Assembly: GCA_002245135.1 (NCBI GenBank)
Contig: NGBS01000583.1
Coordinates: 62,001 to 126,000 of the forward strand
Direction of reading: 5' to 3'
Source: Proteromonas lacertae
Taxonomy: Eukaryota
Length of the DNA: 64,000 nucleotides
The notes beneath the pieces are model-generated. The model did no database searches and had not been told where the DNA came from. It saw only the letters and a list, made by a program, of their open reading frames with translations. How positions within the stretch are numbered: position 1 is the stretch's first letter; each line of letters starts with the position of its first letter. A program made the position numbers and the translations under genes. Of the stretch, positions 3,095 to 52,349 are shown piece after piece.

Positions 3095-3277
3095 TATTGA
3101 TTTTAATGGAATAAAACAAAGAAAAGAATGATTTTTGTGTTTCTTATACTTGTAACGGTTAAGTGTTTCTGTAAACTTAAAACTATTCATTAGTATTTCT
3201 ACATAAACTAAATACATTTTGTTATCATTATATATATAGCACTTTAACCTAAAACTAGTTATTTATAAATAATCTTC

Positions 3278-3487
3278 TTATCTATTATCACTATCATTCA
3301 ATCCATTACAAACATAATTTAATATATTGTTATGCAAAAAATTTCTGATTTAATATATCAACAATGAGTTATACTGAATATTCTTGTTATCGTTACTGTA
3401 TTCCCACAGCATAAGCCCAATAGTCTCTAGACTATTAGATTTAGGTTCTGCTGTTGAGAATTTCTTCAGCAATTCTCCTATGTCCAT
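3278..3487 (-). pseudogene. Truncated 5' duplicate of the SAAL1-like gene (59 codons, stops at TAA just past the repeat edge)
   Basis: Lies in repeat copy 2. ATG 3487, same 30-nt intron, ends GAT AAT AGA TAA at 3280-3278. Confidence 0.8.
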
Positions 3488-3559
3488 TAAAAATTAAAGA
3501 AATTAAATCCCAAATATTTATTCGTTTTTTTATGAGGTTTGAGAGTTTGTCAATAAAAA
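3281..3559. repeat. 279-bp direct repeat, copy 2
   Basis: Identical by eye to 1500-1778. Confidence 0.95.
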
Positions 3560-3784: not shown

Positions 3785-6700
3785 TTAATAATATGTTGTT
3801 TCAGACCATCTATTTGGATTATTCTGTTGAACTGTATTATTATTATTATATTTCTTATTTTTATCATTATTATATCTATTATTTCTATTCCTATTCATAC
3901 TCATTGCAGAATTCATATTATTCCTATTATTTCTATTATCACGATTTGACATAGTCTTTCTATAAAACCTAGATTGTTCAAACAGCGAATTACCAAACCT
4001 ACTTTCATATAAAATTTCATTTGCTGAGACTAAATAATTCAAATTATAAGTTAATGAATAAGATAAAGACTGCAATTTGGATGGTTCTTTTCTGTGGAAT
4101 AACACTGTGTTTGTAGTTTGATCCCAAGATGCTAATAACATTCCATCCACCATCATTTTACTGATTATACTATGAATTGTATTAGAATTGAGACAAAACA
4201 ATTCTTTTAATCTTTCTAATGATAAGGAGTCATAATAACCACTACAATTCAATACATATGTCTGTAGAGCAGTATCTTTAATCCAATGTTCTAAATTACT
4301 CTTAAATTTATCTAATTCATTATATTTAAATATATTCCATATTTCTAATGATTGAATTGCATTATTTGCTTCAATCCAATCACCATCTCTTAAACTAACT
4401 GTAGCATACATGACATTATCTTTAGCAGTTTCAGCTGGACCTAAAAACAATCTCTTTTCATAATTCATTAAATGATTTGTAAAACATCGATAATGATCAT
4501 TTATTCCAACTATATTGTGGTTTGATATTGCTAAGGATGGGACTATTACTATCATACATGATATGAAATAACACACTTCTATTAAATCTAAATTTATATG
4601 TTGAATTGAGGGTAATAATCTTCTTTTCTCTTGTTTTATTTCATCTGCAGTTTTTTCACCATTTATTACTTTATAATTTATTCCTAAATAATTAAATAAA
4701 TATATAAATATAATAGATAGATAGATGTTATTAAATCCCTAAGACAAATGCCTCATTAACTTCATAAAGTTATGATTACAATTGAATGGATGTATAATCA
4801 TTCAGACTCGTCATCTTGTTCTTCATTGGGATAATAATATTAATAATAATTAGTAATATATAGACAAGATAAATACCTTGTGCTAATAATTCTTTTGCTT
4901 TCTGTTTATATCCTTTAGGGAATAATAAACCAATTAAACAATTCATACAGTTAATATGATCACCCATTCTAAATGCAGCTAATCCTAATTGAGTTAATGC
5001 TCTATTATATAACACCTAAATAAATAAAATATATTGATTTATATATTAAAATAATGTAAGACTTTTATACAACTATAAGAATGACTTTTTATAACATTGA
5101 AATAGAGAAAAGAAAGTATTTATTCATATTCGAACCTATATATATCAATATTTATATTAAAATATCAATAATAACTCAGTTCGAATTTATACACAACATA
5201 TTATATATATATACCAGTAAACTATATTCATCAGGAGTAGTAGGAGTAATTGCTGGAATAATGGATTGTAATTGAGTTAATAACAACAAATCTCGAGCTT
5301 TCACAAACTTATCATGTATTGAGTAATAGTATATTAAACATAATATACATCTCTGTTTACAATATTCACTACCATTTTGATTAATATAAGTAACTAAATC
5401 TTCTAATTCTTTCTCCCAATCATGGTTCTTTATATTTACATTATTTGGTTGTTTTCCCCAACTTGCTGGGTTGGTGATTTGTATATCAAAGTTATCAGGG
5501 ATAGTTGTATTGGAATTAGAAGCAGGATGGTATTGTAGTTTATCACCAAATATTTGATAGAGTGTATAATCCTTATTTTGTTCATCTGCTAAATTATTGT
5601 GTTTATAATATCTATTAAAATATAATTATAAATAAATATTTATATCAAGATTTTATATATATATAATTAAGAGTGAGATTGTATATTATTTCAGTTGAAC
5701 TATACTATTAAATTCAACATGTGTTGATTTAGATAGAAATTTTGACATCATTATATAATATATAGAGTAATAAATAATAAAGAAATGTATATAATATTAA
5801 TAAATCAGTTGAGCAATAAAAGCCACATAATATATTCAGAGCGAAAGACAACCATCCTTTATTAATACAACAATAGTATTAGAATATATAAGTATTAATA
5901 TTAATAATCAGTTGAGCAATAAAAGCCACATAATATATTCAGAGCGAAAGACAACCATCCTTTATTAATATTAACACAATGATTAGAAGTAGTAATAGTA
6001 TATATTATATATAATCAGATTTAATGTAAGTTTGACTTCATATATTAAAGTCAGAGATTGTTCACAACCATCATTTATATATAATAATAATAATAATAAT
6101 ATTAATAAAGAAATAGATTAATATATACCTTAATTCAACTATCAATAATGATAATTGTGATGTAATATCTGGTTTATTCAGTTTCTTATAATAATCAACA
6201 CCTTTATATAATGTTTCTATCAATGGTAATTCATCAGGTAATCTTATTAAATAATCATTACTACTGCTATCTATATTCTTTAGACTCTTATTATAATCAC
6301 CTGTTAATCTATCTAATATTAATGATGGCATTAGTGGAACTGGGATTATATTTAACTATACAATATATAGTAATATATATTAATACATTGTCTGGTATTT
6401 GTGCATTAAATTCATATGTCAATAACAATTCATAATTTTCATTCTTTAATAATATATCTAATAATGTTGATAATATTCTAATAGATCTTCTCCATAAGTG
6501 AATAGATAAATGAGAATCAGGATCTTTATGAAATTCAGTCTATTATTAATAATATATATATATAATATATACAATTGTTGTAATTAATCCCAATCCAGTC
6601 ATAATCTTGTAATAGTCTTCATATTTCTGTGATTCATTATATAACTGTGTTAATATCATTATTTGTTCTACTTTATTCACTTTCTTACCTCTATTCTCCA

Positions 6701-10749: not shown

Positions 10750-12395
10750 ATGGAGAACACCTGTGCCAGTAATTCTACTAAAATCAATGAACTAAAACCT
10801 ATGTCAACAGAATACGCTGTATAATTATTCTTTTACAATCACTAGTCAAGATTATTATCACCTAAATATTATGGAGCTATAAGAACCTCACCAAAAAAGT
10901 GTCAGACACCAAAAGTTGGGTATGAAATTCTATCTATATCGTATATATAGCGAAAGTTGCGATAGATTTATACCGTGCAGATCTTCATCAGAATTAGAAT
11001 CAGCATTCACATTTGACGATTTTGCTCAATCATTTTCACAGTATTATTGTATTTTGTATAATCTCAAATAAGAAATGAATCTTCTACTAACACTACATCA
11101 AAGAATATAACAATTGACGTTGACTCTCCTTACTCATTAATGCTACAATCAGAATTATTAGGCATTGACTCACTTCCTTCAACTCCAATATCAAACACAA
11201 AGTCACACTCATCTGCTACAAATTCATCATATAATAGTCCTCAAACATCACCTAAAAAAATACTTCACTTTTCTCCCAAAACTCCAGAAAGAACAAAATC
11301 ATTTTTTTCTCCAATTAGTAACAATCATTTTATATCATCTCCGCTTGTACCAAATAGAAAAATTCCAACTATTCCATTCAAAATGTTAGATGCTCCTGGT
11401 TTAAAAGATGATTTTTACATCAATGTGTTAGATTGGTCAAAAAATAATATTATTAGTGTTGGACTAGAATCTACAGCATATTTATACAATGCAGTTAATA
11501 ATAATGTATAAATTACATATATATATCTTAAAATAGATAATAGAATTATCAGATTATGAAAATGATTATGTTTCATGTCTAAAATTCAACGGTGAAGGTA
11601 ATCTACTCACAATAGCCACTAATAATGGTAAAATACAAATATGGGATGTTGTTAATACTTCATTAATTAGAGAATATAAGAGTAATGGTTCAATAAATCA
11701 TCGAAGAGTAGGTACATGTAGTTGGTGTGGTGATTCTACGATAGCAACAGGTAGTAAAGATGGTATAATAACAATCAGAGATATACGATGTTCTACTGAT
11801 AATATACATTTATTATATGGACATAGTGATGAAGTGTGTGGTTTAAAATATAGTTATCCAACTCAAAATATCCAATTAGCATCAGGAGGTAATGATAATA
11901 CAGTGTGTATATGGGAACCTAACCATAGTTGTAGACCTATTCATATATTGAAGGATCATACTGCCAGCAATCAAAGCCTTAGACTGGTCACCGCATCAAA
12001 ATGGACTATTAGCTAGTGGAGGTGGTACTGCTGATAAAAAGATAAGATTTTGGAATACTTTTACTGGTAGTTGTTTGAATACAGTTGATAGTGGTAGTCA
12101 AGTATGTAATATATTATGGAGTCCTCATGTTAATGAGTTTATTACTAGTCATGGTTTTACTTATAATCAGTTGAATGTGTGGAAGTATCCCAGTTGTAGT
12201 ACAATTGGTACATTAACAGGGCATAAGTCAAGAGTGTTATTTTTGTCATTATCTCCAGATGGACAATCAGTTGTATCTGGTGCTGGAGATGAAACATTGA
12301 GATTTTGGACAGTATTTCCAGAGAATGTGTTAAAAAGCCAAAATAGACTAAAGAGTCAGAGGTTATTAATTGATAATTCATTGGATATTAGATAA
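10750..12395 (+). CDS. FZR1: APC/C activator Cdh1/Fizzy-related (WD40); +1 frameshift at 11964-11965 in this copy
   Basis: C-box DRFIPCR, Cdh1-type [28 protein letters not shown]40 repeats, [11 protein letters not shown]-terminal IR tail; 4 short introns. Confidence 0.9.
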
Positions 12396-12764
12396 TTATG
12401 TAAAATGTAGTTAAGTTATTTAATTAATTCTTCATATGTGTTTGTTGAATATTATTTTAAAATGTGTTAAAATAGAGATTGTATTGATAAATTTTTTGGG
12501 GGTTTATAACAAATAATATTCTACATATATGTACAGATGATTTTATCTTTTTTATAGTAATATAAATCAGAGATTATCTAATTTTATAATAAAAGGCTTA
12601 AATCGTCCATTTATTATTAAAAAGACGTTTTTATCTATTAAAAAATGACTAGTTCTCGCGATATATGTTTGTACATAATAAATAACCAAACATCAAAAAC
12701 TTATAATTATTATTATGAAAAATCACTACTCAAAAGAATCTTTTATTAGTAATTATTTGGAATA

Positions 12765-13109
12765 ATGTCTGAAACACGTAGTCCTAGTTTTGTAAGTGCC
12801 AATAGTTCTCAAAAACAGTTTGTAAGAAAAGTATTTCACAACCCTTGCCAGTATTGGTACTGTGGTTTATGTGCTTGTGTTACATCCATTTTTTTATTTT
12901 TTTATACCTTATTTGCATTAATATTCACTTCATTATGGTATTTCATCAAAGGTTTATGGAATTGCATAACTTGTAACTGTGATGAAAGTTTTTGTGGCGA
13001 TGAGTTTTTTGGTGAGTGCACAACATCTTGTGATGGTGGCTGTTCATATTTAGGTGAATGTTGTTGCGATTGTTTAGGTTGTGCAACATGCCATCCTAAC
13101 GATGATTGA
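12765..13109 (+). CDS. Small cysteine-rich membrane protein (114 aa), copy 1
   Basis: Intronless ORF with a central hydrophobic segment and Cys-rich acidic tail (GECCCDCLGC). Confidence 0.7.
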   Translation: MSETRSPSFVSANSSQKQFVRKVFHNPCQYWYCGLCACVTSIFLFFYTLFALIFTSLWYFIKGLWNCITCNCDESFCGDEFFGECTTSCDGGCSYLGECCCDCLGCATCHPNDD

Positions 13110-13707
13110 AGTAAATATAAAAAGTTATACATTGTAATGTTTTTATTAATTGTTAGAATGAAGAAACTATTTGTCATAAACACTAACACATATAACTGAA
13201 TGTATAAAAAAATAGGCTTGTTGTAGCTTTATTTTAGTTTTTTTATTTCTTAGTAATAAAAGTAAATGCATATATGTGTGATATACATATAATAAAGGCA
13301 TATATGTAAATAATAGTAAAATATCATTTAAAGCATTGATGTAATATTAAAATACTCCTATTGATGAATAATTATTATATTCATTGTTAATATATTAAAT
13401 TATATAGTATTTATTTCTTATGTTAAGTGTCGTACAAAAAAAATTAATGTGTACACTAACCTTTAATATTGTTCTTATGCAAAAAAAGATGTATATAACA
13501 ATGTTTGATGGTATGAAAATGAAAAGCAAAGTCAGTAACAAAAATGCAGTACGTCTTATTTAAAGCTTATATGAGATTAACAAACAACAAGCTGATGCTA
13601 ATTGTATTAATCCATATGTGAATAGTAGTTAGCATAATGAAATAATAAGAAAGATATAAAAGTAACGAAAATAAAATTCTTTAAAAGATTAGACTAATTA
13701 AAATACT

Positions 13708-16700
13708 ATGATATTGGTGTTTTTATTGTTGTCAGGAGGTATAATATTTTATTTTTAACATTTAGTTTTATGTAGTCCTTGTCTTAAGTTCAGCAATGAG
13801 ATCTATCTCATTTTAGGTAGTGAAGTTGAAGTTTGTTCTCCATTTAGAAATGGTCGATCATGCGCAGTTGATAGAAGTTTGCCAGAAGGTTTGACTCTTA
13901 AAGAAGACTGTAGAATTGTTGGATTTACCAAAATGGCCTGTAGAACAGAATATTTTACACTTAAATCATACAATAATGATAAAATTATGGAAAAGAAGTT
14001 ATTTTCATTAGGTGTTTATGAAAAACTCGAGAAATGTGGTTATTCTGATGGTTCAGGAGTATTTATGTTTCCAAAGGATATAACATCGTCATTATCACCT
14101 CCTAAATGCAATGTGGAAATAGAAAAATGTTATAGTTATGATAAATTACCCAAATTTGTAAAAGTGTATGAAGATGGTTCAATCCTTTTATCAAATCCAA
14201 TAAAATCAGAATTAGGTGTTAATGTGATTTGTTATAATAAAGTGAGTGAATATAAGATGAAGTTGAAAATAAACATTATTGAAGTATCTGAAAATGGTAA
14301 TGATAAAGTTCGCAATCTTCAAAGCAACATAATCCAAAATATTTGGGAATTTTCTAATAATAGACAACCAAATGATATATGGATGATTGGTTTCAGAGAT
14401 AAAAAGAATTGGATAGTAAGTAATTCGTTTCCTCCAAAATCAAAAACAACAAGATATTATCGAAACACATTTACCATTACTAATATAAAAGAAACTGGTC
14501 CTCCATTACTTAAAATAACCTTTAATGATGGAATTCTTATTTATGTAAATGGAAAAGAAATATATAGAAGAAATTTTTTTTCAGGTGGAATAGACACCAC
14601 AACTACATCAAGGAAAAAAGAAAAAAGAAATATGGAAATATCAATTCCTCTAACAGTAATTAAAGAGGGAATTAATTACATTGGAATAGAAGTTCATTCA
14701 TATTTATCCAATCCATTGAATCAAGTTGATTCTCTTTCTTGTACAATAACATTAAGTAATCCAATTACAACTACTCCAACTCAAATATCTACAATTGATA
14801 CAGTCACTCAATATTATCAATCTGCTTCTGGAAAAGAAGTAAAAGAAGTAAAAGATATGAATAACATTTTTTCAATTGGTAGTGGTTATATCGAATATTA
14901 TTTAACTTCATTAGTAGACTCCAATAAAGAATTTGATTGGTTTCCATTCAATATTACTTATTCATTTAATAATAATAAAGCCTTTTATTTCAATCAATTT
15001 AGTATAAGTGGTTGTTCTGATGATGAAGACTATCATCCTAAACATATTAGAATATATGGTTCAACAGATAGTGATGGTATAGAGTGGGAATTACTGTATG
15101 AAAATGAAAATTTAGGGTTGACTGGTAAAAAATGCACAACTATATTATCCAATTCATTACCATCTGATAAATCTTACGAAAGATATAAATTGGAAATAAT
15201 TTCAATTAATGATTTTCCTACTATCACTTCTGCCTATATTAAATTTAAATTATTTGTAGTAAATGTTGAATCATTACCAATGTGTAAAAGTGATTCTTTT
15301 GGATTTTCATCAGTATATGCTGGAGGAACATCTATAGTAGAATGTGGATCAGGATTTATGAAAAGAAAATGTTTATATGCTAGTGTTACTAACACAGCCA
15401 AATGGTCAGATGATATTGATAAGTCAAAATGCTATAATGAAAATGTTTATGTTTCAACCTATCCAAATATAACTAAAACCTATGAATTTGATAAAGAAAT
15501 ATCCTCAATCACACCAAAATCACAATATGTGAGTATTAGTGGAAAAATACTAAAGGTAAATAGTAATATAGAAACAGTTCAAAGATTTGAAGTGATATTG
15601 AGTGATTTAACAGAATATGATGTATATGTAAGTGCTGTAAGAGATGTTGGTAAATGTAGTTATGGAGTTGATAGTATTCGAATTTATCCAATTGAAATAG
15701 ATCTAGAATTGCTATGTTATCATAAACCATCTTATATATCAGTTTATAATCTTCCTACTGGTTTAAATGTAGATAAAAATGGTAGAATATATGGAATGAT
15801 AAGCGATCCAACTGAAAAAGAGGAATATACAACAGTAATTACATATATAATAGATAAAAAATATGAATTAGAGATAAAATGGAATAGAAAAAAAGTAGAA
15901 ATGAGTTGGGGATTAGAATTTGTAAATTTTGCAGAATCTGGCCAAGATGGAATGGATGATAATGGTTACAACTTTCATAACAGTGAATTAAAAGATATTT
16001 GGTCTAAATTTGAAAATGGAAAATATAAAATAGCAACAACAGAAGCATTATATACTACTAATGTTAAAATATCGGATTCAAAAGGTGAATGTCTTAAGTA
16101 TTTATGGAAGACTTGTCAAAATGGTATAGCCAGAATGAGAGGATATGTAAAAATTGATGAAGATGGAGAGTATACATTTTATGGAAAATCTGATAGACAA
16201 AAATTTGCCTTAAAGAATTACGAAGACGAATTATATAATACAAATGGTTTTTTTGAAGAAGGAAGCTATAAAGTTACATTAAAAAAAGGATATTATGCAA
16301 TTGGATATTTATCATGGTATGGTAGTGGATCTAGTGAATTTCAAGCATACCTTCAAAAAACAGGAGGTAATAAAGAATTATTGGATGATAGAATATTCAG
16401 GGGTGGGTTTGTTATTTCTCATTTATCATATAATGTTTTATTTGTTGAGTTAAAAAAGTATGATGATATATTTCTAAAACCAACTTTCAATGGAATTCCG
16501 TCAGAATGGGAAATAAGTCCAGAAATTAAAGGACTGTCAATCAAACCTGATGGAACAATAGAAGGATATACTTATGTCTATAGTAGTGACTATAAAATAG
16601 TGGTAGTAAAATCTGTTAGTAAAATAGATATATGTGAAATTTCTACAGAATTTCAACTTCATCTTTTTGATAAATACAGTATTAATCAAAATGGTTTAAA

Positions 16701-18240
16701 AGTTAAATATTATTATTTTGATGCAATTGATGTAGATAATACAATTAATATCTCTACACTTGATAATAAACATTTTAGATTAGAGAGATTTGAAGAAAAT
16801 ATATATCACGAAAAGAATGATAATTTATGGAATGATTTACCAGAAGAATTGAGTTATTCATTTATAGCTCATTACAGAGGATATTTTAATAATAAACTTT
16901 CAACTAAAAAAAATATTACAATCTCTCTAGAATGTCATGATTATTGTAGATTGAATATTGAAGATAAGTATATAGAGTGTAAAGGATATGGTTATCACAA
17001 AAAATCTGTTGAAATGAATCTAGATAATAGTTTATATGATTTAGAAATAATATATGCAAAAGGAAATGAAGATAAAACAAAATTACTAAAAATTTATTAT
17101 TCTATAGATGATTCTGAAGGAAAAGAAATTCCTGAATCATTATATTTGTTTAACGCAGAATATCCAGTGTTATATAATCCAATTAAGACTCATTACTATA
17201 AAGATGTATTAATCTTAATTCAATCTCCTATCAAATCTAAATCATTTAGTGAAAATATAGCCAATGTAAAATATTCAATTAGTCCTTCACTTCCTCCTGG
17301 AATGAAATTAAATGAAAATGATGGATCAATTGAAGGAATAAGTGAAATAATTGATGAAGATAGAAATTATACAATAAGAATTGATTTTAGGAATAACAAA
17401 CATTTTTATTCTTCATTTTCATTTTCAGTATTACCTAAAATTGAACCAATAATTGAATATCCAATTAATAATATATCCATAAAAGCAGGAGAGAATATTG
17501 AACTTACACCTTCTAACATGAAATGTGAATATATAAATGCTGCTGGTTTACCAGCTGGTATAAATATAGATAAAGATGGAAAAGTTTATGGTATTAGCAA
17601 ATATAGTTTTGATAAAGATGTGGATATGGATTGTTTTACATATAAAAAGAAAAGTGTATCTATTCACATAACAATAATATCTGATGAAACACTACCCCCT
17701 ACCACTATAATACCAACAACAGAAACACCTACGTCTGCTAAGCCAACTATAAAAATGGTTGAATTGTTCTTCTTTATTCACATCAATATTACTACATTAA
17801 CAGCAAATGAAATAAATATAATTGAAGAATCTTTAAAAGCAATATTAGAAAAACTAAACATTGATATGTCAATTACTAAAGTTAAGATTGAAATGATGAA
17901 AAGAAGGATGAGAATATTATCTGAGTATAAGTTAAGAGTCATTATAGAAACACCAGAAACAGAATCTACCAATGTAACATCAACTATAAAATATTTGGCT
18001 GAAAATGAAGGTGAATTACAGAATGAGATAAAGAATAGAGTAGATAAGGATTCTGACTTATATAATTCAAAAATAGAAATTGAGATAGAAAAGAATGATA
18101 CATCACCTCCACCTGAGAATGAAGAAGAAAGTAACAATAATGTAGTGATGATAATAATTATAGTTGTAGCTGTCGTTGTAGTATTAGTATGTTGTGCTAT
18201 TACATGTAGAATTATCAATAGGAAAAATGTGAAAAGATAA
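13708..18240 (+). CDS. Large type I cell-surface protein (about 1500 aa): He_PIG Ig-like repeats, galactose-binding-like and PA14-like domains, PT linker, SEA-like juxtamembrane domain; copy 1
   Basis: ATG 13708 plus a 27-nt intron gives signal peptide MILVFLLLSGVLCS. Repeats of LPxGLx(I/L)xxxGxIxG; PA14-like F(I)AHYRGY...ECHDYCRL; C-terminal TM (VVMIIIIVVAVVVVLVCC) and basic tail. Confidence 0.85.
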
Positions 18241-18393
18241 TATTGTTATAAATAGAAATTGATATCTTATTATTATTATTATTATTATGATAAATTGTAT
18301 TTAAGGTAATCATTCTTCATTAAATGGCTATATTATGGTACATTTATTTTTGAAGAAGAATATTAAAAAATCGAAAACCCTCTAGAAACCCCA

Positions 18394-18420
18394 TGCTCAA
18401 TCGATTGAGCACATGCTCAA
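18394..18420. repeat. Triple short inverted repeat TGCTCAA/TTGAGCA/TGCTCAA in the palindrome spacer
   Basis: Perfect 18-bp palindrome TGCTCAATCGATTGAGCA (18394-18411) overlapping TTGAGCA-CA-TGCTCAA. Confidence 0.9.
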
Positions 18421-18726
18421 ATGTAATCTACCCTTTTTTAATTTCCTTCAATTATAATGACTCTAATGAAATTAAGTACATTTATCAGCAAAACAAAATT
18501 TGTACTAAAATTTTAGTTTAACACAATATTCGTTTATAAAATATGACTTACACAATTTACTATGTAAAATTTTAAAGGCAAAACTTGTACTTTTATTTTT
18601 TTAATATTCTTCTTCAAAAATAAATGTACCATAATATAGCCATTTAATGAAGAATGATTACCTTAAATACAATTTATCATAATAATAATAATAATAATAA
18701 GATATCAATTTCTATTTATAACAATA

Positions 18727-21700
18727 TTATCTTTTCACATTTTTCCTATTGATAATTCTACATGTAATAGCACAACATACTAATACTACAACGACAGCTA
18801 CAACTATAATTATTATCATCACTACATTATTGTTACTTTCTTCTTCATTCTCAGGTGGAGGTGATGTATCATTCTTTTCTATCTCAATTTCTATTTTTGA
18901 ATTATATAAGTCAGAATCCTTATCTACTCTATTCTTTATCTCATTCTGTAATTCACCTTCATTTTCAGCCAAATATTTTATAGTTGATGTTACATTGGTA
19001 GATTCTGTTTCTGGTGTTTCTATAATGACTCTTAACTTATACTCAGATAATATTCTCATCCTTCTTTTCATCATTTCAATCTTAACTTTAGTAATTGACA
19101 TATCAATGTTTAGTTTTTCTAATATTGCTTTTAAAGATTCTTCAATTATATTTATTTCATTTGCTGTTAATGTAGTAATATTGATGTGAATAAAGAAGAA
19201 CAATTCAACCATTTTTATAGTTGGCTTAGCAGACGTAGGTGTTTCTGTTGTTGGTATTATAGTGGTAGGGGGTAGTGTTTCATCAGATATTATTGTTATG
19301 TGAATAGATACACTTTTCTTTTTATATGTAAAACAATCCATATCCACATCTTTATCAAAACTATATTTGCTAATACCATAAACTTTTCCATCTTTATCTA
19401 TATTTATACCAGCTGGTAAACCAGCAGCATTTATATATTCACATTTCATGTTAGAAGGTGTAAGTTCAATATTCTCTCCTGCTTTTATGGATATATTATT
19501 AATTGGATATTCAATTATTGGTTCAATTTTAGGTAATACTGAAAATGAAAATGAAGAATAAAAATGTTTGTTATTCCTAAAATCAATTCTTATTGTATAA
19601 TTTCTATCTTCATCAATTATTTCACTTATTCCTTCAATTGATCCATCATTTTCATTTAATTTCATTCCAGGAGGAAGTGAAGGACTAATTGAATATTTTA
19701 CATTGGCTATATTTTCACTAAATGATTTAGATTTGATAGGAGATTGAATTAAGATTAATACATCTTTATAGTAATGAGTCTTAATTGGATTATATAACAC
19801 TGGATATTCTGCGTTAAACAAATATAATGATTCAGGAATTTCTTTTCCTTCAGAATCATCTATAGAATAATAAATTTTTAGTAATTTTGTTTTATCTTCA
19901 TTTCCTTTTGCATATATTATTTCTAAATCATATAAACTATTATCTAGATTCATTTCAACAGATTTTTTGTGATAACCATATCCTTTACACTCTATATACT
20001 TATCTTCAATATTCAATCTACAATAATCATGACATTCTAGAGAGATTGTAATATTTTTTTTAGTTGAAAGTTTATTATTAAAATATCCTCTGTAATGAGC
20101 TATAAATGAATAACTCAATTCTTCTGGTAAATCATTCCATAAATTATCATTCTTTTCGTGATATATATTTTCTTCAAATCTCTCTAATCTAAAATGTTTA
20201 TTATCAAGTGTAGAGATATTAATTGTATTATCTACATCAATTGCATCAAAATAATAATATTTAACTTTTAAACCATTTTGATTAATACTGTATTTATCAA
20301 AAAGATGAAGTTGAAATTCTGTAGAAATTTCACATATATCTATTTTACTAACAGATTTTACTACCACTATTTTATAGTCACTACTATAGACATAAGTATA
20401 TCCTTCTATTGTTCCATCAGGTTTGATTGACAGTCCTTTAATTTCTGGACTTATTTCCCATTCTGACGGAATTCCATTGAAAGTTGGTTTTAGAAATATA
20501 TCATCATACTTTTTTAACTCAACAAATAAAACATTATATGATAAATGAGAAATAACAAACCCACCCCTGAATATTCTATCATCCAATAATTCTTTATTAC
20601 CTCCTGTTTTTTGAAGGTATGCTTGAAATTCACTAGATCCACTACCATACCATGATAAATATCCAATTGCATAATATCCTTTTTTTAATGTAACTTTATA
20701 GCTTCCTTCTTCAAAAAAACCATTTGTATTATATAATTCGTCTTCGTAATTCTTTAAGGCAAATTTTTGTCTATCAGATTTTCCATAAAATGTATACTCT
20801 CCATCTTCATCAATTTTTACATATCCTCTCATTCTGGCTATACCATTTTGACAAGTCTTCCATAAATACTTAAGACATTCACCTTTTGAATCCGATATTT
20901 TAACATTAGTAGTATATAATGCTTCTGTTGTTGCTATTTTATATTTTCCATTTTCAAATTTAGACCAAATATCTTTTAATTCACTGTTATGAAAGTTGTA
21001 ACCATTATCATCCATTCCATCTTGGCCAGATTCTGCAAAATTTACAAATTCTAATCCCCAACTCATTTCTACTTTTTTTCTATTCCATTTTATCTCTAAT
21101 TCATATTTTTTATCTATTATATATGTAATTACTGTTGTATATTCCTCTTTTTCAGTTGGATCGCTTATCATTCCATATATTCTACCATTTTTATCTACAT
21201 TTAAACCAGTAGGAAGATTATAAACTGATATATAAGATGGTTTATGATAACATAGCAATTCTAGATCTATTTCAATTGGATAAATTCGAATACTATCAAC
21301 TCCATAACTACATTTACCAACATCTCTTACAGCACTTACATATACATCATATTCTGTTAAATCACTCAATATCACTTCAAATCTTTGAACTGTTTCTATA
21401 TTACTATTTACCTTTAGTATTTTTCCACTAATACTCACATATTGTGATTTTGGTGTGATTGAGGATATTTCTTTATCAAATTCATAGGTTTTAGTTATAT
21501 TTGGATAGGTTGAAACATAAACATTTTCATTATAGCATTTTGACTTATCAATATCATCTGACCATTTGGCTGTGTTAGTAACACTAGCATATAAACATTT
21601 TCTTTTCATAAATCCTGATCCACATTCTACTATAGATGTTCCTCCAGCATATACTGATGAAAATCCAAAAGAATCACTTTTACACATTGGTAATGATTCA

Positions 21701-23259
21701 ACATTTACTACAAATAATTTAAATTTAATATAGGCAGAAGTGATAGTAGGAAAATCATTAATTGAAATTATTTCCAATTTATATCTTTCGTAAGATTTAT
21801 CAGATGGTAATGAATTGGATAATATAGTTGTGCATTTTTTACCAGTCAACCCTAAATTTTCATTTTCATACAGTAATTCCCACTCTATACCATCACTATC
21901 TGTTGAACCATATATTCTAATATGTTTAGGATGATAGTCTTCATCATCAGAACAACCACTTATACTAAATTGATTGAAATAAAAGGCTTTATTATTATTA
22001 AATGAATAAGTAATATTGAATGGAAACCAATCAAATTCTTTATTGGAGTCTACTAATGAAGTTAAATAATATTCGATATAACCACTACCAATTGAAAAAA
22101 TGTTATTCATATCTTTTACTTCTTTTACTTCTTTTCCAGAAGCAGATTGATAATATTGAGTGACTGTATCAATTGTAGATATTTGAGTTGGAGTAGTTGT
22201 AATTGGATTACTTAATGTTATTGTACAAGAAAGAGAATCAACTTGATTCAATGGATTGGATAAATATGAATGAACTTCTATTCCAATGTAATTAATTCCC
22301 TCTTTAATTACTGTTAGAGGAATTGATATTTCCATATTTCTTTTTTCTTTTTTCCTTGATGTAGTTGTGGTGTCTATTCCACCTGAAAAAAAATTTCTTC
22401 TATATATTTCTTTTCCATTTACATAAATAAGAATTCCATCATTAAAGGTTATTTTAAGTAATGGAGGACCAGTTTCTTTTATATTAGTAATGGTAAATGT
22501 GTTTCGATAATATCTTGTTGTTTTTGATTTTGGAGGAAACGAATTACTTACTATCCAATTCTTTTTATCTCTGAAACCAATCATCCATATATCATTTGGT
22601 TGTCTATTATTAGAAAATTCCCAAATATTTTGGATTATGTTGCTTTGAAGATTGCGAACTTTATCATTACCATTTTCAGATACTTCAATAATGTTTATTT
22701 TCAACTTCATCTTATATTCACTCACTTTATTATAACAAATCACATTAACACCTAATTCTGATTTTATTGGATTTGATAAAAGGATTGAACCATCTTCATA
22801 CACTTTTACAAATTTGGGTAATTTATCATAACTATAACATTTTTCTATTTCCACATTGCATTTAGGAGGTGATAATGACGATGTTATATCCTTTGGAAAC
22901 ATAAATACTCCTGAACCATCAGAATAACCACATTTCTCGAGTTTTTCATAAACACCTAATGAAAATAACTTCTTTTCCATAATTTTATCATTATTGTATG
23001 ATTTAAGTGTAAAATATTCTGTTCTACAGGCCATTTTGGTAAATCCAACAATTCTACAGTCTTCTTTAAGAGTCAAACCTTCTGGCAAACTTCTATCAAC
23101 TGCGCATGATCGACCATTTCTAAATGGAGAACAAACTTCAACTTCACTACCTAAAATGAGATAGATCTCATTGCTGAACTTAAGACAAGGACTACATAAA
23201 ACTAAATGTTAAAAATAAAATATTATACCTCCTGACAACAATAAAAACACCAATATCAT
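18727..23259 (-). CDS. Large type I cell-surface Ig/PA14 protein, copy 2
   Basis: Same 1453-aa ORF as copy 1, with the mirrored signal-peptide exon. Confidence 0.85.
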
Positions 23260-23857
23260 AGTATTTTAATTAGTCTAATCTTTTAAAGAATTTTATTTTC
23301 GTTACTTTTATATCTTTCTTATTATTTCATTATGCTAACTACTATTCACATATGGATTAATACAATTAGCATCAGCTTGTTGTTTGTTAATCTCATATAA
23401 GCTTTAAATAAGACGTACTGCATTTTTGTTACTGACTTTGCTTTTCATTTTCATACCATCAAACATTGTTATATACATCTTTTTTTTCATAAGAACAATA
23501 TTAAAGGTTAGTGTACACATTAATTTTTTTTGTACGACACTTAACATAAGAAATAAATACTATATAATTTAATATATTAACAATGAATATAATAATTATT
23601 CATCAATAGGAGTATTTTAATATTACATCAATGCTTTAAATGATATTTTACTATTATTTACATATATGCCTTTATTATATGTATATCACACATATATGCA
23701 TTTACTTTTATTACTAAGAAATAAAAAAACTAAAATAAAGCTACAACAAGCCTATTTTTTTATACATTCAGTTATATGTGTTAGTGTTTATGACAAATAG
23801 TTTCTTCATTCTAACAATTAATAAAAACATTACAATGTATAACTTTTTATATTTACT

Positions 23858-24202
23858 TCAATCATCGTTAGGATGGCATGTTGCACAACCTAAACAATCG
23901 CAACAACATTCACCTAAATATGAACAGCCACCATCACAAGATGTTGTGCACTCACCAAAAAACTCATCGCCACAAAAACTTTCATCACAGTTACAAGTTA
24001 TGCAATTCCATAAACCTTTGATGAAATACCATAATGAAGTGAATATTAATGCAAATAAGGTATAAAAAAATAAAAAAATGGATGTAACACAAGCACATAA
24101 ACCACAGTACCAATACTGGCAAGGGTTGTGAAATACTTTTCTTACAAACTGTTTTTGAGAACTATTGGCACTTACAAAACTAGGACTACGTGTTTCAGAC
24201 AT
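23858..24202 (-). CDS. Small cysteine-rich membrane protein, copy 2
   Basis: Identical to 12765-13109. Confidence 0.7.
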   Translation of the reverse strand: MSETRSPSFVSANSSQKQFVRKVFHNPCQYWYCGLCACVTSIFLFFYTLFALIFTSLWYFIKGLWNCITCNCDESFCGDEFFGECTTSCDGGCSYLGECCCDCLGCATCHPNDD

Positions 24203-24571
24203 TATTCCAAATAATTACTAATAAAAGATTCTTTTGAGTAGTGATTTTTCATAATAATAATTATAAGTTTTTGATGTTTGGTTATTTATTATGTACAAAC
24301 ATATATCGCGAGAACTAGTCATTTTTTAATAGATAAAAACGTCTTTTTAATAATAAATGGACGATTTAAGCCTTTTATTATAAAATTAGATAATCTCTGA
24401 TTTATATTACTATAAAAAAGATAAAATCATCTGTACATATATGTAGAATATTATTTGTTATAAACCCCCAAAAAATTTATCAATACAATCTCTATTTTAA
24501 CACATTTTAAAATAATATTCAACAAACACATATGAAGAATTAATTAAATAACTTAACTACATTTTACATAA

Positions 24572-25250
24572 TTATCTAATATCCAATGAATTATCAATTA
24601 ATAACCTCTGACTCTTTAGTCTATTTTGGCTTTTTAACACATTCTCTGGAAATACTGTCCAAAATCTCAATGTTTCATCTCCAGCACCAGATACAACTGA
24701 TTGTCCATCTGGAGATAATGACAAAAATAACACTCTTGACTTATGCCCTGTTAATGTACCAATTGTACTACAACTGGGATACTTCCACACATTCAACTGA
24801 TTATAAGTAAAACCATGACTAGTAATAAACTCATTAACATGAGGACTCCATAATATATTACATACTTGACTACCACTATCAACTGTATTCAAACAACTAC
24901 CAGTAAAAGTATTCCAAAATCTTATCTTTTTATCAGCAGTACCACCTCCACTAGCTAATAGTCCATTTTGATGCGGTGACCAGTCTAAGGCTTTGATTGC
25001 TGCAGTATGATCCTTCAATATATGAATAGGTCTACAACTATGGTTAGGTTCCCATATACACACTGTATTATCATTACCTCCTGATGCTAATTGGATATTT
25101 TGAGTTGGATAACTATATTTTAAACCACACACTTCATCACTATGTCCATATAATAAATGTATATTATCAGTAGAACATCGTATATCTCTGATTGTTATTA
25201 TACCATCTTTACTACCTGTTGCTATCGTAGAATCACTACACCAACTACAT
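24572..25250 (-). pseudogene. FZR1: 5'-truncated Cdh1/Fzr1 duplicate (C-terminal WD40 repeats plus IR tail, frame intact)
   Basis: Begins at the duplication breakpoint with an in-frame TAA immediately upstream and no ATG. Lacks the C-box and first WD repeats. Confidence 0.85.
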
Positions 25251-49750: not shown

Positions 49751-50944
49751 TTAATCTAACATACTTTCAACATCAATATCACCAAACTCATCTTCATTAT
49801 TTGAATGAAGTGATCTATTACTAGCACGGTTTGGATCTTTTACAGAAGCAAGACTAGGAGCAGCATCAGGAGCTGGCGAGGAAGCTGGTTGACGACCTGG
49901 ACCAGGTGGTGGTGGTCTTCTTGGCATAGCTGATCCATCATCACCTCCTCCTCTTCCATTATTTGGATTGATTTGTGGAGGTGGTGCTCTTCCTCCTTGT
50001 GCAAACGTAGTTTGACCGTTATTAACTTGATTTCTACGCTCTAATTCTGCATATTGAGCAGCGAATACATCTGAATTTTCACCTAAATCTTTACATAAAG
50101 CTACCAAGTATCTTAAACATTCAATATTTTCTGGATATTGTTTATGAATATCTTTATACATCTGTAATGCTTTCTTTAAGTTACCTAAACGTCTATAACA
50201 ACTAGTAACCATCAATTTCCATTTCACTTCATCTGGTTGAACTTCAGTAGCTCTTTCAAAGAAGGAAATTGCTTCTTCATACATTTCAGATCTGACAAAC
50301 CATAATCCAAGCCAAGATATAACATCTAAATTAACTGGATAGAATTTATAACTTTCTTTATGATAATGTAATGCTTGAGTATCATCATCTTCTTGACTAA
50401 ATAATTGACCTAATCTTGCAGTAATACCTGGATCAGTTGGAACTTTAGCTAATAACAAATTATAATATTTTATAGCTTCTTTTGGTCGATGTAATATTTC
50501 ATAAATTGTACCTATTTGATAGAATACTTCTGGATTACCTGGAGTTACTTGCAATAACTTCTCAAATGCTTGTAATGCTTCTTCCTGTGGTCCTACACGT
50601 TTTGCTACCAATCCTAAATTATAGATTGCTTCACTACAATCAGCTTCAACACCAATAGCTTCTAAATACATCTCTTTGGATTTATCATATTCTTCTTTAA
50701 TATAATGGCAATTACCTTTGTTTACTAAAGCTCTAGCATTATATCTATCTTTCTTTACAGCTTGAGTAGCATATTCATCAGCTTGTTTGTAATCTTGTTG
50801 TAAGAAATACATGAATGATAAGTTATTAGAGACTTGTGATCCTAATTGTTGATCTCTCTTTTCTGGTCCTCTTAATACTTTGGTAGCTTCATCAATCTTC
50901 TTTTGATGCATCTATTTTAATAATAATAATATTATTATTTATTA

Positions 50945-50982
<38 letters not shown>

Positions 50983-52349
50983 AGCAACTGCTTTACAAAC
51001 TTCTACTTCATTTGCTAAACTAGCATACTTATCTCTTAATTGAGTTATTACCCAATCATAACCATCAAATTCATTATATAACTTCTTATCAACACCTGCA
51101 TCATTCTTTATTATCTTTTCAGCTACTTTAGGAGCTATTAACTTAGCTGCTTTTACGATGTATTTTTCACATTTATTACGATAATTGTAATAGAAATCTT
51201 CTAATGGACGAGCTACAGCTGTTTTGGGTCTATAATTCTTAGTATCAATTTCATCGTTTTCAGCTTCCTTTTGTTCCTCAAAGGATGGATCTTCAATTGG
51301 CATATTGATTAAGTTAGTAAAACATGTTCTCATTTTACTACTATCGTCAATGGCATAATAACAAATTATCAAATTATAAGCTGTTTGAAAATCTATTAAA
51401 AAATCAATTAATTAACATTTATATTTTTATACCAGTGTTTTGAGATGTACTATTCAATATACCTTCATATGCCTGAATAGCTTCCAAGAAATTACCTGAC
51501 TTTACATATGCATTACCTATATTCTTTTGAATATCTAACTGCATTTGTCTCATATTCTGACCTGGAATTCTATCTAAGGCCATTTTATACATTTTTACGG
51601 CTTGAGGGTATTTACCTTGTTTGTAGTAAATATTACCCATATTTACACGTAATCTACCTGCTTGTTGATACTGTTTGTTTTTCACTATCAATTCATATGT
51701 CTTTAATGCTTCTTCATACATTTCATTGAGTTGGAAACAGTAAGCTAAATTAAAATCAATTGCGAATTTCAAATCGAAATTTACTTGATCTGCTAATTGA
51801 TTTTCTTCTCGGTATCTTGTCAATTTACGCTCTTTTTGTGCCTATATTATAATATGTCATTAATTAATATATTTAATACAGCTTGTTTTGCTTTATCTAA
51901 AGCATCACGGTAGTTTTGATCTTTAGCTGCAAATGCTGAATCCTCTAAAGCAGAATTTACTTGTTTCTCCATATCGTGAGCCATTTCTTCTGGACCGACA
52001 TCTTTTGTATCAATCAAAGGTTTAGTTGCGAAAGAAGAGGTTGGATCAAGCGGGTTTGTCTTAGCATTGAAATTAGCAGCATTTACTGAAGTCATTGGTC
52101 TTGAACCATCTCCAGAACCTGGAACTCCTAACATTGCTGCTGTAGCCATTCTACTTCCAGTTGGTGCTCTTGGACCAAATGCTGTTCTAATAAAATATAT
52201 AAAAACAATGATATAATATACTTCATAGCTGTAGTTTGTCTCATTGCAGTTGGTGGTGGTGGCTTTGAATAAGGGTTAAACATTGCGTTTCCTGCCCCTT
52301 GATCAAAATCATACAAGTCATCATCATCGTTTTTATGATCGTTAAACAT
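49751..52349 (-). CDS. IFT88: Intraflagellar transport protein 88 (TPR protein); 4 introns
   Basis: RPMTSVNAANF, AGRLRVNMGNIYY, DRYNARALVNKGN, EAIGVEADCSEAIYNLGL, VPTDPGI, KWKLMVTSCYRR, YPENIECLRYLV. Confidence 0.96.

Follow-up and report, generated by a model that had tools for sequence, protein, structure and literature searches.

Why should a gene for a translation factor carry three introns of several hundred nucleotides in a region where introns are typically about 30 nt long? The question arises in a 64,000-nt stretch of DNA from Proteromonas lacertae (contig NGBS01000583.1, positions 62,001 to 126,000; hereafter the window), with a G+C content of 26.5%. An earlier note, made from the sequence, had proposed that the three long introns of the eIF3c gene are filled by six snoRNA-like units, one of them U15, one H/ACA-like and four of the box C/D type. 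We examined the gene structure, the units and their predicted rRNA targets, and compared the locus with known snoRNA systems and with eIF3c genes of other organisms.

The long introns of eIF3c

The homologues of the gene carry the eIF3c and PCI Pfam domains, and its eight GT-AG introns measure 31, 32, 38, 33, 31, 517, 199 and 193 nt, with the frame staying open throughout. The host gene and its three long introns are as follows:

7690-3785, minus strand: host gene eIF3c, with 9 exons and 944 codons (stop included)
6128-5612, minus strand: intron 6, 517 nt, GT-AG, with four box C/D units
5214-5016, minus strand: intron 7, 199 nt, GT-AG, with an H/ACA-like candidate
4876-4684, minus strand: intron 8, 193 nt, GT-AG, with a U15-type unit

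In tblastn comparisons, the homologue alignment is unbroken over all three long introns, with no residues missing: residue 363 of P0153 adjoins both 6125 and 5610, at the two ends of the 517-nt intron, and residue 536 of P0147 adjoins both 4875 and 4684, at those of the 193-nt intron. This continuity rules out a hidden exon inside them. No close relative of this eIF3c was found, the best identity being about 41%.

An ab initio parse of the window with a 1/length prior, which passed over the second copy of an inverted duplication and a plus-strand gene near 40-42 kb, yielded 75 introns with a median length of 33 nt, 57 of them no longer than 48 nt. This census and the intron lengths read directly in eIF3c bear out the proposed contrast between introns of about 30 nt in general and 193, 199 and 517 nt in this gene. 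Twelve other predicted introns reach at least 60 nt; judged by eye, they are mostly gene-end guesses, read-through exons and merged pairs of short introns, and none of these twelve in the window has C/D architecture. A 68-nt TA-repeat intron at 50979 looks real and is without boxes. That the long introns of eIF3c hold snoRNA-like cargo is a confirmed observation; intron length as a general flag for ncRNA is the weaker statement, a rule resting on three introns of one gene.

The window has several other features. The inverted duplication (11716-25250) is perfect, about 6.65 kb long with a 226-nt centre at 18371-18596, and duplicates an ORF of 1493 codons, a small ORF rich in Cys and a portion of a CDC20-like gene; between the CDC20-like copies (about 11965 versus 25002), a one-base insertion shifts the frame of the left copy, by assembly error or decay. 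An exact 279-nt direct repeat (1500-1778 and 3281-3559) flanks an old-yellow-enzyme gene beside eIF3c, whose best named matches are Opalinidae and Blastocystis proteins at 48-54% identity and whose product is close to bacterial proteins too. An IFT88 gene at 49751-52275 (E 3e-98) points to a flagellated organism; the Blastocystis sequenced so far have lost almost every flagellar gene (PMC10690189). Both genes fit a flagellated stramenopile of the Opalinata, the group of the nearest named relatives.

Box C/D units and their predicted targets

Four units lie in the 517-nt intron, all on the host strand and without splice sites between them:

6003..6086, minus strand: unit 1, box C/D, C box AUGAUGG at 6074, D' box CUGA at 6054, C' box at 6041, D box CUGA at 6018, 12-bp flanking stem
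5895..5974, minus strand: unit 2, dual-guide box C/D, C box AGGAUGG at 5961, D' box at 5942, C' box at 5931, D box at 5911, 13-16-bp stem
5794..5870, minus strand: unit 3, a copy of unit 2 in tandem with it, 103 nt downstream
5682..5760, minus strand: unit 4, box C/D, C box AUGAUGU at 5751, D' box CUAA at 5732, C' box at 5720, D box CUGA at 5694, 8-bp stem

Each of these units has a box D near its 3' end and internal D' and C' boxes (the D' box of unit 4 being CUAA), the four boxes all falling inside 54-61 nt, and each is flanked by an A/U-rich stem of 8-16 bp; successive units are 53, 49 and 53 nt apart, measured from D box to C box. The 54-nt cores of units 2 and 3 are identical, and the two units have an exact repeat of 65 nt in common, while their outer flanks have diverged. 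The C boxes keep the GAUG core, with one or two changes outside it relative to RUGAUGA, and the canonical form occurs in none of the five C/D units of the eIF3c introns (the fifth is the U15-type unit described below).

Scanning about 15.4 kb of non-coding window sequence on both strands for this architecture returned ten matches, eight of which overlap the five C/D units. The remaining two are the same weak candidate, present once in each arm of the inverted duplication outside coding sequence and probably due to chance:

13158-13252, plus strand, and 23715-23809, minus strand: weak C/D-like candidate with AUGAAGA, CUGA and CUUA

The motif CTGA occurs nine times in the long eIF3c introns, against a mean of 2.1 and a maximum of 7 in 1000 shuffles. 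Rfam gave a divided answer: nothing in the window reached the gathering score, so that all six units were missed, but sub-threshold matches to C/D families lie over the units. A 321-nt scan over units 1-3 gave nine weak matches, eight of them C/D families on the host strand, and unit 4 weakly resembles SNORD36 (E 3.4). By their boxes, stems and guides, the C/D units that had been claimed are present, five in all with four clustered in the 517-nt intron. We predict with high confidence that these five are box C/D guide snoRNAs, and the four-unit intronic cluster is well supported.

Targets were assigned by the +5 rule and are numbered as yeast equivalents on proxy rRNAs of other eukaryotes, namely eukaryotic rDNA found inside prokaryote genome contigs. 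Among 44 motif matches there, 14 are eukaryotic LSU stretches (L017, L019, L020, L033, L035, L038, L040, L041, L044, L045, L048, L049, L054 and L058); L045 and L049 alone are Rfam-confirmed as full LSU, and no proxy locus is known as stramenopile. Two near-complete units are found among these rDNA loci, and L045 has a linked 5S gene. Viral contigs were rejected as a source of proxies, all 16 motif matches in them being chance (15 of the 16 were scanned with Rfam, with no match). The bases of L045 fit published yeast modification spacings at all three anchor sites (2278/2280/2281/2288; 2870/2922/2946/2948/2959; 805/807/867/876/898/908; table in PMC5199042), and those of L049 at two of the three. 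The yeast numbering of the targets is fixed because the bases of L045 match this published spacing.

All four complementarities to conserved LSU rRNA named in the earlier note are present in the proxy rRNAs. The D' guide of unit 1 forms 11 bp with the LSU A-loop and places yeast U2921 at +5 in all five loci holding the site; the D guide of unit 4 forms 9-10 bp with LSU rRNA, with yeast A817 at +5 (four of four loci). In units 2 and 3, the D' guide, GCGAAAGAC, forms 10 bp with LSU rRNA in six of six loci, its +5 position being the yeast A913 equivalent, 5 nt off the known Gm908 site. Their D guide pairs over 9-11 bp with SSU rRNA in three of three loci, with roughly the yeast G1419 equivalent at +5. 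We take this SSU target to be the G nine bases before the one that we number G1428, partly from spacing. The pairing requires the GAGCAAUAA rRNA variant and would be weakened by a variant with an extra G. In the U15-type unit, the guide at the terminal box forms 12 bp with A2281 at +5 and the D' guide 10 bp with G2288 at +5, each in 14 of 14 loci, a match that is partly circular, as this motif served to fetch the loci; these guides also agree with the Rfam consensus, which is independent of the proxies.

For the D guide of unit 1, no convincing target was found in the proxy rRNAs, nor was one for the D' guide of unit 4, which pairs over just 7 bp near A2220. Two identities were considered and rejected: U49/Cm for unit 1, whose +5 position is the U before G2922, and U36 for unit 4, where the pairing is merely 7 bp and off register. 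From these pairings we infer as predicted targets the yeast-equivalent Um2921, Am817, Am2281 and Gm2288, together with A913 in the LSU and about G1419 in the SSU.

Could all of this be the chance motif content of A/T-rich introns? No unit has an Rfam match at the gathering level, which would fit chance. Four guides fall on known methylation sites in exact +5 register, and tests of register and of enrichment contradict this explanation. We counted CTGA, CTAA or CTTA boxes with a duplex of at least 10 bp to conserved rRNA, using 300 dinucleotide shuffles: 6 of 19 boxes in the long introns bear such a duplex, whereas the rest of the window has 38 of 1438 and the shuffles give a mean of 0.24 (maximum 3); two of the six use the motif that fetched the proxies and two belong to one duplicated unit. 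With both U15 guides and the duplicate removed, 3 of 16 boxes remain, against a background of 2.6%. We regard chance as a highly improbable account of the whole.

The predicted targets invite comparison with known guides. By the +5 rule, the D' guide of unit 1 would address the same nucleotide, Um2921, as yeast snR52 and Dictyostelium CD25, but the unit has no Rfam match to snR52 and its second guide fits neither Am420 nor Am619; the likeness appears to be one of shared target only, not of demonstrated homology. Am817 and Gm908 are the sites of snR60, human U77/U80 and Ostreococcus Ot-CDsno106/Ot-CDsno8, and yeast snR60 guides both (PMC5199042). Unit 4 resembles these RNAs in its predicted target A817, and units 2 and 3 in pairing with the stretch adjoining G908, but the latter two differ in their +5 position and in carrying an SSU guide as well. 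No Gm908 guide was found in the eIF3c locus. That guides for A817 and for a position five bases from G908 stand in neighbouring units suggests an ancestor that may have been split and shifted. A913 and the site near G1419 are absent from four published lists, for yeast (PMC5199042), plants in the main (PMC11542601), Dictyostelium (PMC8817022) and, as far as term searches reached, Ostreococcus (PMC7671301).

The single units in the 193- and 199-nt introns

The 193-nt intron holds one further C/D unit:

4735..4831, minus strand: U15/snoR75-type box C/D unit, C box AUGAAGA at 4826, D' box CUGA at 4805, terminal box CUUA at 4743, UCCC/GGGA stem

In Rfam, this 97-nt unit aligns over its whole length with SNOR75, SNORD15 and Tetrahymena TtnuCD10, at E values of 4e-4, 8e-4 and 1.5 in a 1.6-kb scan and of 0.017 (SNOR75) and 0.031 (SNORD15) over the whole window. 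Its scores against the U15/snoR75 models, 32.4 and 28.6 bits, lie below both gathering thresholds (50 and 75). Like U15, snoR75 and TtnuCD10 (Rfam RF00067, RF02539 and RF02287), it has both guides, for the Am2281 and Gm2288 equivalents; it differs from them in its length of 97 nt, its terminal CUUA, its sub-gathering scores and its host gene. Both guides and the terminal stem are intact, and the C box AUGAAGA is also that of the Rfam consensus of the Tetrahymena U15 (TtnuCD10).

The terminal box, at 4743-4740, reads CUUA instead of CUGA, which converts the second sheared A-G pair of the K-turn to A-U. In Kt-23, an A-U pair at this place folds, but hardly at all if the next pair can be Watson-Crick (PMC2790904), and in the U15-type unit the next pair would be able to form Watson-Crick. 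The unit may be a variant rescued by protein, a copy in decay or the product of a base error. The claim of one U15 thus stands as far as the guides and the end-to-end alignment go, but not for the terminal box or the scores; we file the unit as U15-type by its predicted target, with intact membership unconfirmed.

Some units might be decaying copies, be it the U15-type unit, one of units 2 and 3 or the D' half of unit 4, and CUUA might also be an assembly error for CUGA. The non-canonical terminal box and the K-turn context rule speak for this, as does the one-base frameshift between the near-identical CDC20-like copies, which implies that single-base errors or decay do occur in the window. 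Against it stand the intact U15 guides and terminal stem, a C box shared with the Tetrahymena consensus, and the cores of units 2 and 3, identical though their flanks have diverged. We consider decaying copies among the units unlikely.

The 199-nt intron holds a different kind of candidate:

5052..5186, minus strand: H/ACA-like candidate with a hairpin-hinge-hairpin-ACA outline, about 135 nt

Its 5' hairpin has an internal loop and a z score of -2.7, a value that 4 of 200 shuffles reach; its 3' hairpin, at z +0.5, is weak, and the entire unit folds no better than shuffles (z -0.64). A possible H box, AUAUGA (fitting ANANNA), at 5129 overlaps the end of the lower stem and lies 14 nt from the first loop, and an ACA at 5057 lies 15 nt from the second. 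The best pocket pairings to the proxy rRNAs score 10 and 12.5 points; 51 of 150 shuffles equal the result for hairpin 1, and 6 of 150 that for hairpin 2. By our count, the best sites are near yeast-equivalent U1042 and U2380, and neither fits the 14-16-nt rule cleanly, that of hairpin 2 violating it. Rfam returned chance miRNA matches only on this intron and no snoRNA family. A C/D reading of the intron was rejected, no convincing box pair being present.

We give the candidate about even odds of being an H/ACA snoRNA. That the intron holds just an A/U-rich hairpin or some other structured RNA is a substantial possibility, if somewhat short of an even chance: the whole-unit fold, the weak 3' hairpin, the Rfam matches and the pocket scores, which are not significant, all fit it. 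The stability of the 5' hairpin, the suitable placing of ANANNA and ACA and the length of about 135 nt argue the other way, and an intron about six times the median length needs some cause. Of the six units said to fill the long introns, then, five are present as C/D units, and the sixth has the outline of an H/ACA RNA but is unconfirmed.

Proposed release from the pre-mRNA and possible history of the locus

The long introns very probably carry five predicted C/D guides for rRNA 2'-O-methylation and one possible H/ACA RNA, produced from the host pre-mRNA after splicing. Their length would be due to this cargo, and a broadly expressed translation gene would be a usual host. Maturation of intronic snoRNAs proceeds by splicing, debranching and exonucleolytic trimming (PMC11028025). 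At this locus, the spliced eIF3c lariats would be debranched and the two single units trimmed by exonucleases back to their protein-protected ends, while the 517-nt intron would first be cut in its A/U-rich spacers and then trimmed.

The 517-nt intron has five internal AG dinucleotides. Each falls inside a unit or on the initial base of a C box, and the spacers have none, so splicing cannot separate the four units and cutting is likely needed to free them; recursive or nested splicing is excluded on the same ground. The intron also has one donor-like GTATT at 5868 and two acceptor-like TAG inside unit 4. The proposal that endonucleolytic release is needed thereby gains indirect support, but the choice of nuclease is a guess. 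An RNase III-family enzyme acting on the 8-16-bp flanking stems would be the most likely cutter. Polycistronic snoRNA precursors of plants and yeast are cleaved by RNase III enzymes and trimmed (PMC5122169), and in Dictyostelium, loss of a nucleolar RNase III barely altered methylation (PMC8817022), a result that, by analogy, would count against RNase III as the releasing nuclease here.

The 517-nt intron might instead stay uncut, as a stable multi-unit RNA (sno-lncRNA-like, capped by its outer C/D motifs) or as joined forms mixed with single ones. Ostreococcus clusters do accumulate stable multi-snoRNA forms (PMC7671301), two snoRNAs in one intron can yield long RNAs with snoRNA ends (PMC11028025), and we identified no cleavage signal in the spacers. 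Each unit, however, has its own complete boxes and stem, and the spacers are a regular 49-53 nt, as would be expected for separate maturation. We think persistence of a multi-unit RNA rather improbable and favour release of the single units.

Hosting of snoRNAs in introns, their clustering and long external stems are all part of an already known mechanism. Several snoRNAs per intron had been called a plant-like arrangement, which holds for plants but is too narrow. Chlamydomonas reportedly has intronic snoRNA clusters, going by a paper's title. Such clusters occur in Arabidopsis, for example in eIF3G (At5g06000; PMC2875012), and equally in Ostreococcus, for example clusters 3 and 5 (PMC7671301). 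Like them, the eIF3c cluster shows local duplication and packs several snoRNAs into a single intron of a housekeeping gene. It differs in belonging to a stramenopile that otherwise has introns of about 33 nt, and in its units, where boxes C to D take up just 54-61 nt and the flanking A/U stems are long. In these stems it resembles the C/D RNAs of Tetrahymena, which have long external stems and lengths of 55-77 nt (PMC3273799).

We also looked at introns of eIF3c in other organisms, using metagenome loci (at least 595 matched and 493 were confirmed). No intron among the best 80 of the 493 eIF3c loci holds a guide-plus-box combination of the Proteromonas introns. This absence is weak evidence because the sample is biased: many loci represent spliced transcripts, and a ranking based on the last exon disfavours genes with introns there. 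Three moss-like loci match the unit 2 guide over 12 nt in their 5' UTR; no C box accompanies this match, and we attribute it to chance. L071 has an insertion of about 200 nt (about 745-940) that lacks a plain GT start and sits one base away from where intron 8 falls in the window's gene; the very similar L070 and L074 do not have it.

The orthologue introns thus share no cargo with Proteromonas in this sample, but some diatom-like ones hold other snoRNAs:

L067:113-206: U14 in the first intron of a diatom-like eIF3c, Rfam SNORD14 E 0.0028, below gathering
L070, about 3220-3315: U14 in the first intron of a diatom-like eIF3c, recognized by motifs
L067:905-1060, also L064, L065, L068, L069, L070 and L130, with the 3' end in L074: conserved C/D-like element of 150-190 nt in a 5' intron of eIF3c

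U14 is found in intron 1 of two of the four diatom-like loci viewed; the first introns of L064 and L068 are shorter, and no U14 was seen in them. The C/D-like element has an invariant 10-nt guide and a conserved internal motif in seven aligned loci, and no Rfam match in the four loci scanned. Its guide fits an SSU stretch that we take to be that around yeast Gm1572. L067 alone was placed taxonomically, by Thalassiosira matches at 70-78%. The diatom-like loci resemble the Proteromonas one in host gene, supergroup and the presence of snoRNA cargo in long introns, but differ in having other snoRNAs, one per intron, in introns near the 5' end and at no shared position. This different cargo fits an ongoing mobility of snoRNAs among broadly expressed hosts, as described previously (PMC3511168).

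These elements may be combined in a single reading, which we put forward tentatively, as possible though not probable. The Opalinata lineage would have gained a new, recently duplicated dual-guide snoRNA, in which an ancestral snR60/U80 guide slid by five bases and was joined with an SSU guide, methylating A913 and a site near G1419; its snoRNPs would tolerate non-canonical boxes, including a working U15 with CUUA; and eIF3c would be a repeated landing site in stramenopiles, loaded independently in diatoms and opalinates.

Annotation of snoRNAs in protists is thin (PMC11028025, PMC12309372), and we found no report on snoRNAs in Blastocystis or its relatives, or on the eIF3c locus, in literature outside subscription journals. 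The eIF3c locus would provide the first concrete guide set for this lineage, including a predicted guide for methylation of the A-loop, and adds two unlisted sites, A913 and about G1419, that can be tested; these and the odd D box CUUA are the points most worth pursuing. Where introns are about 33 nt long, a length above about 150 nt may offer a cheap route to the remaining snoRNA repertoire.
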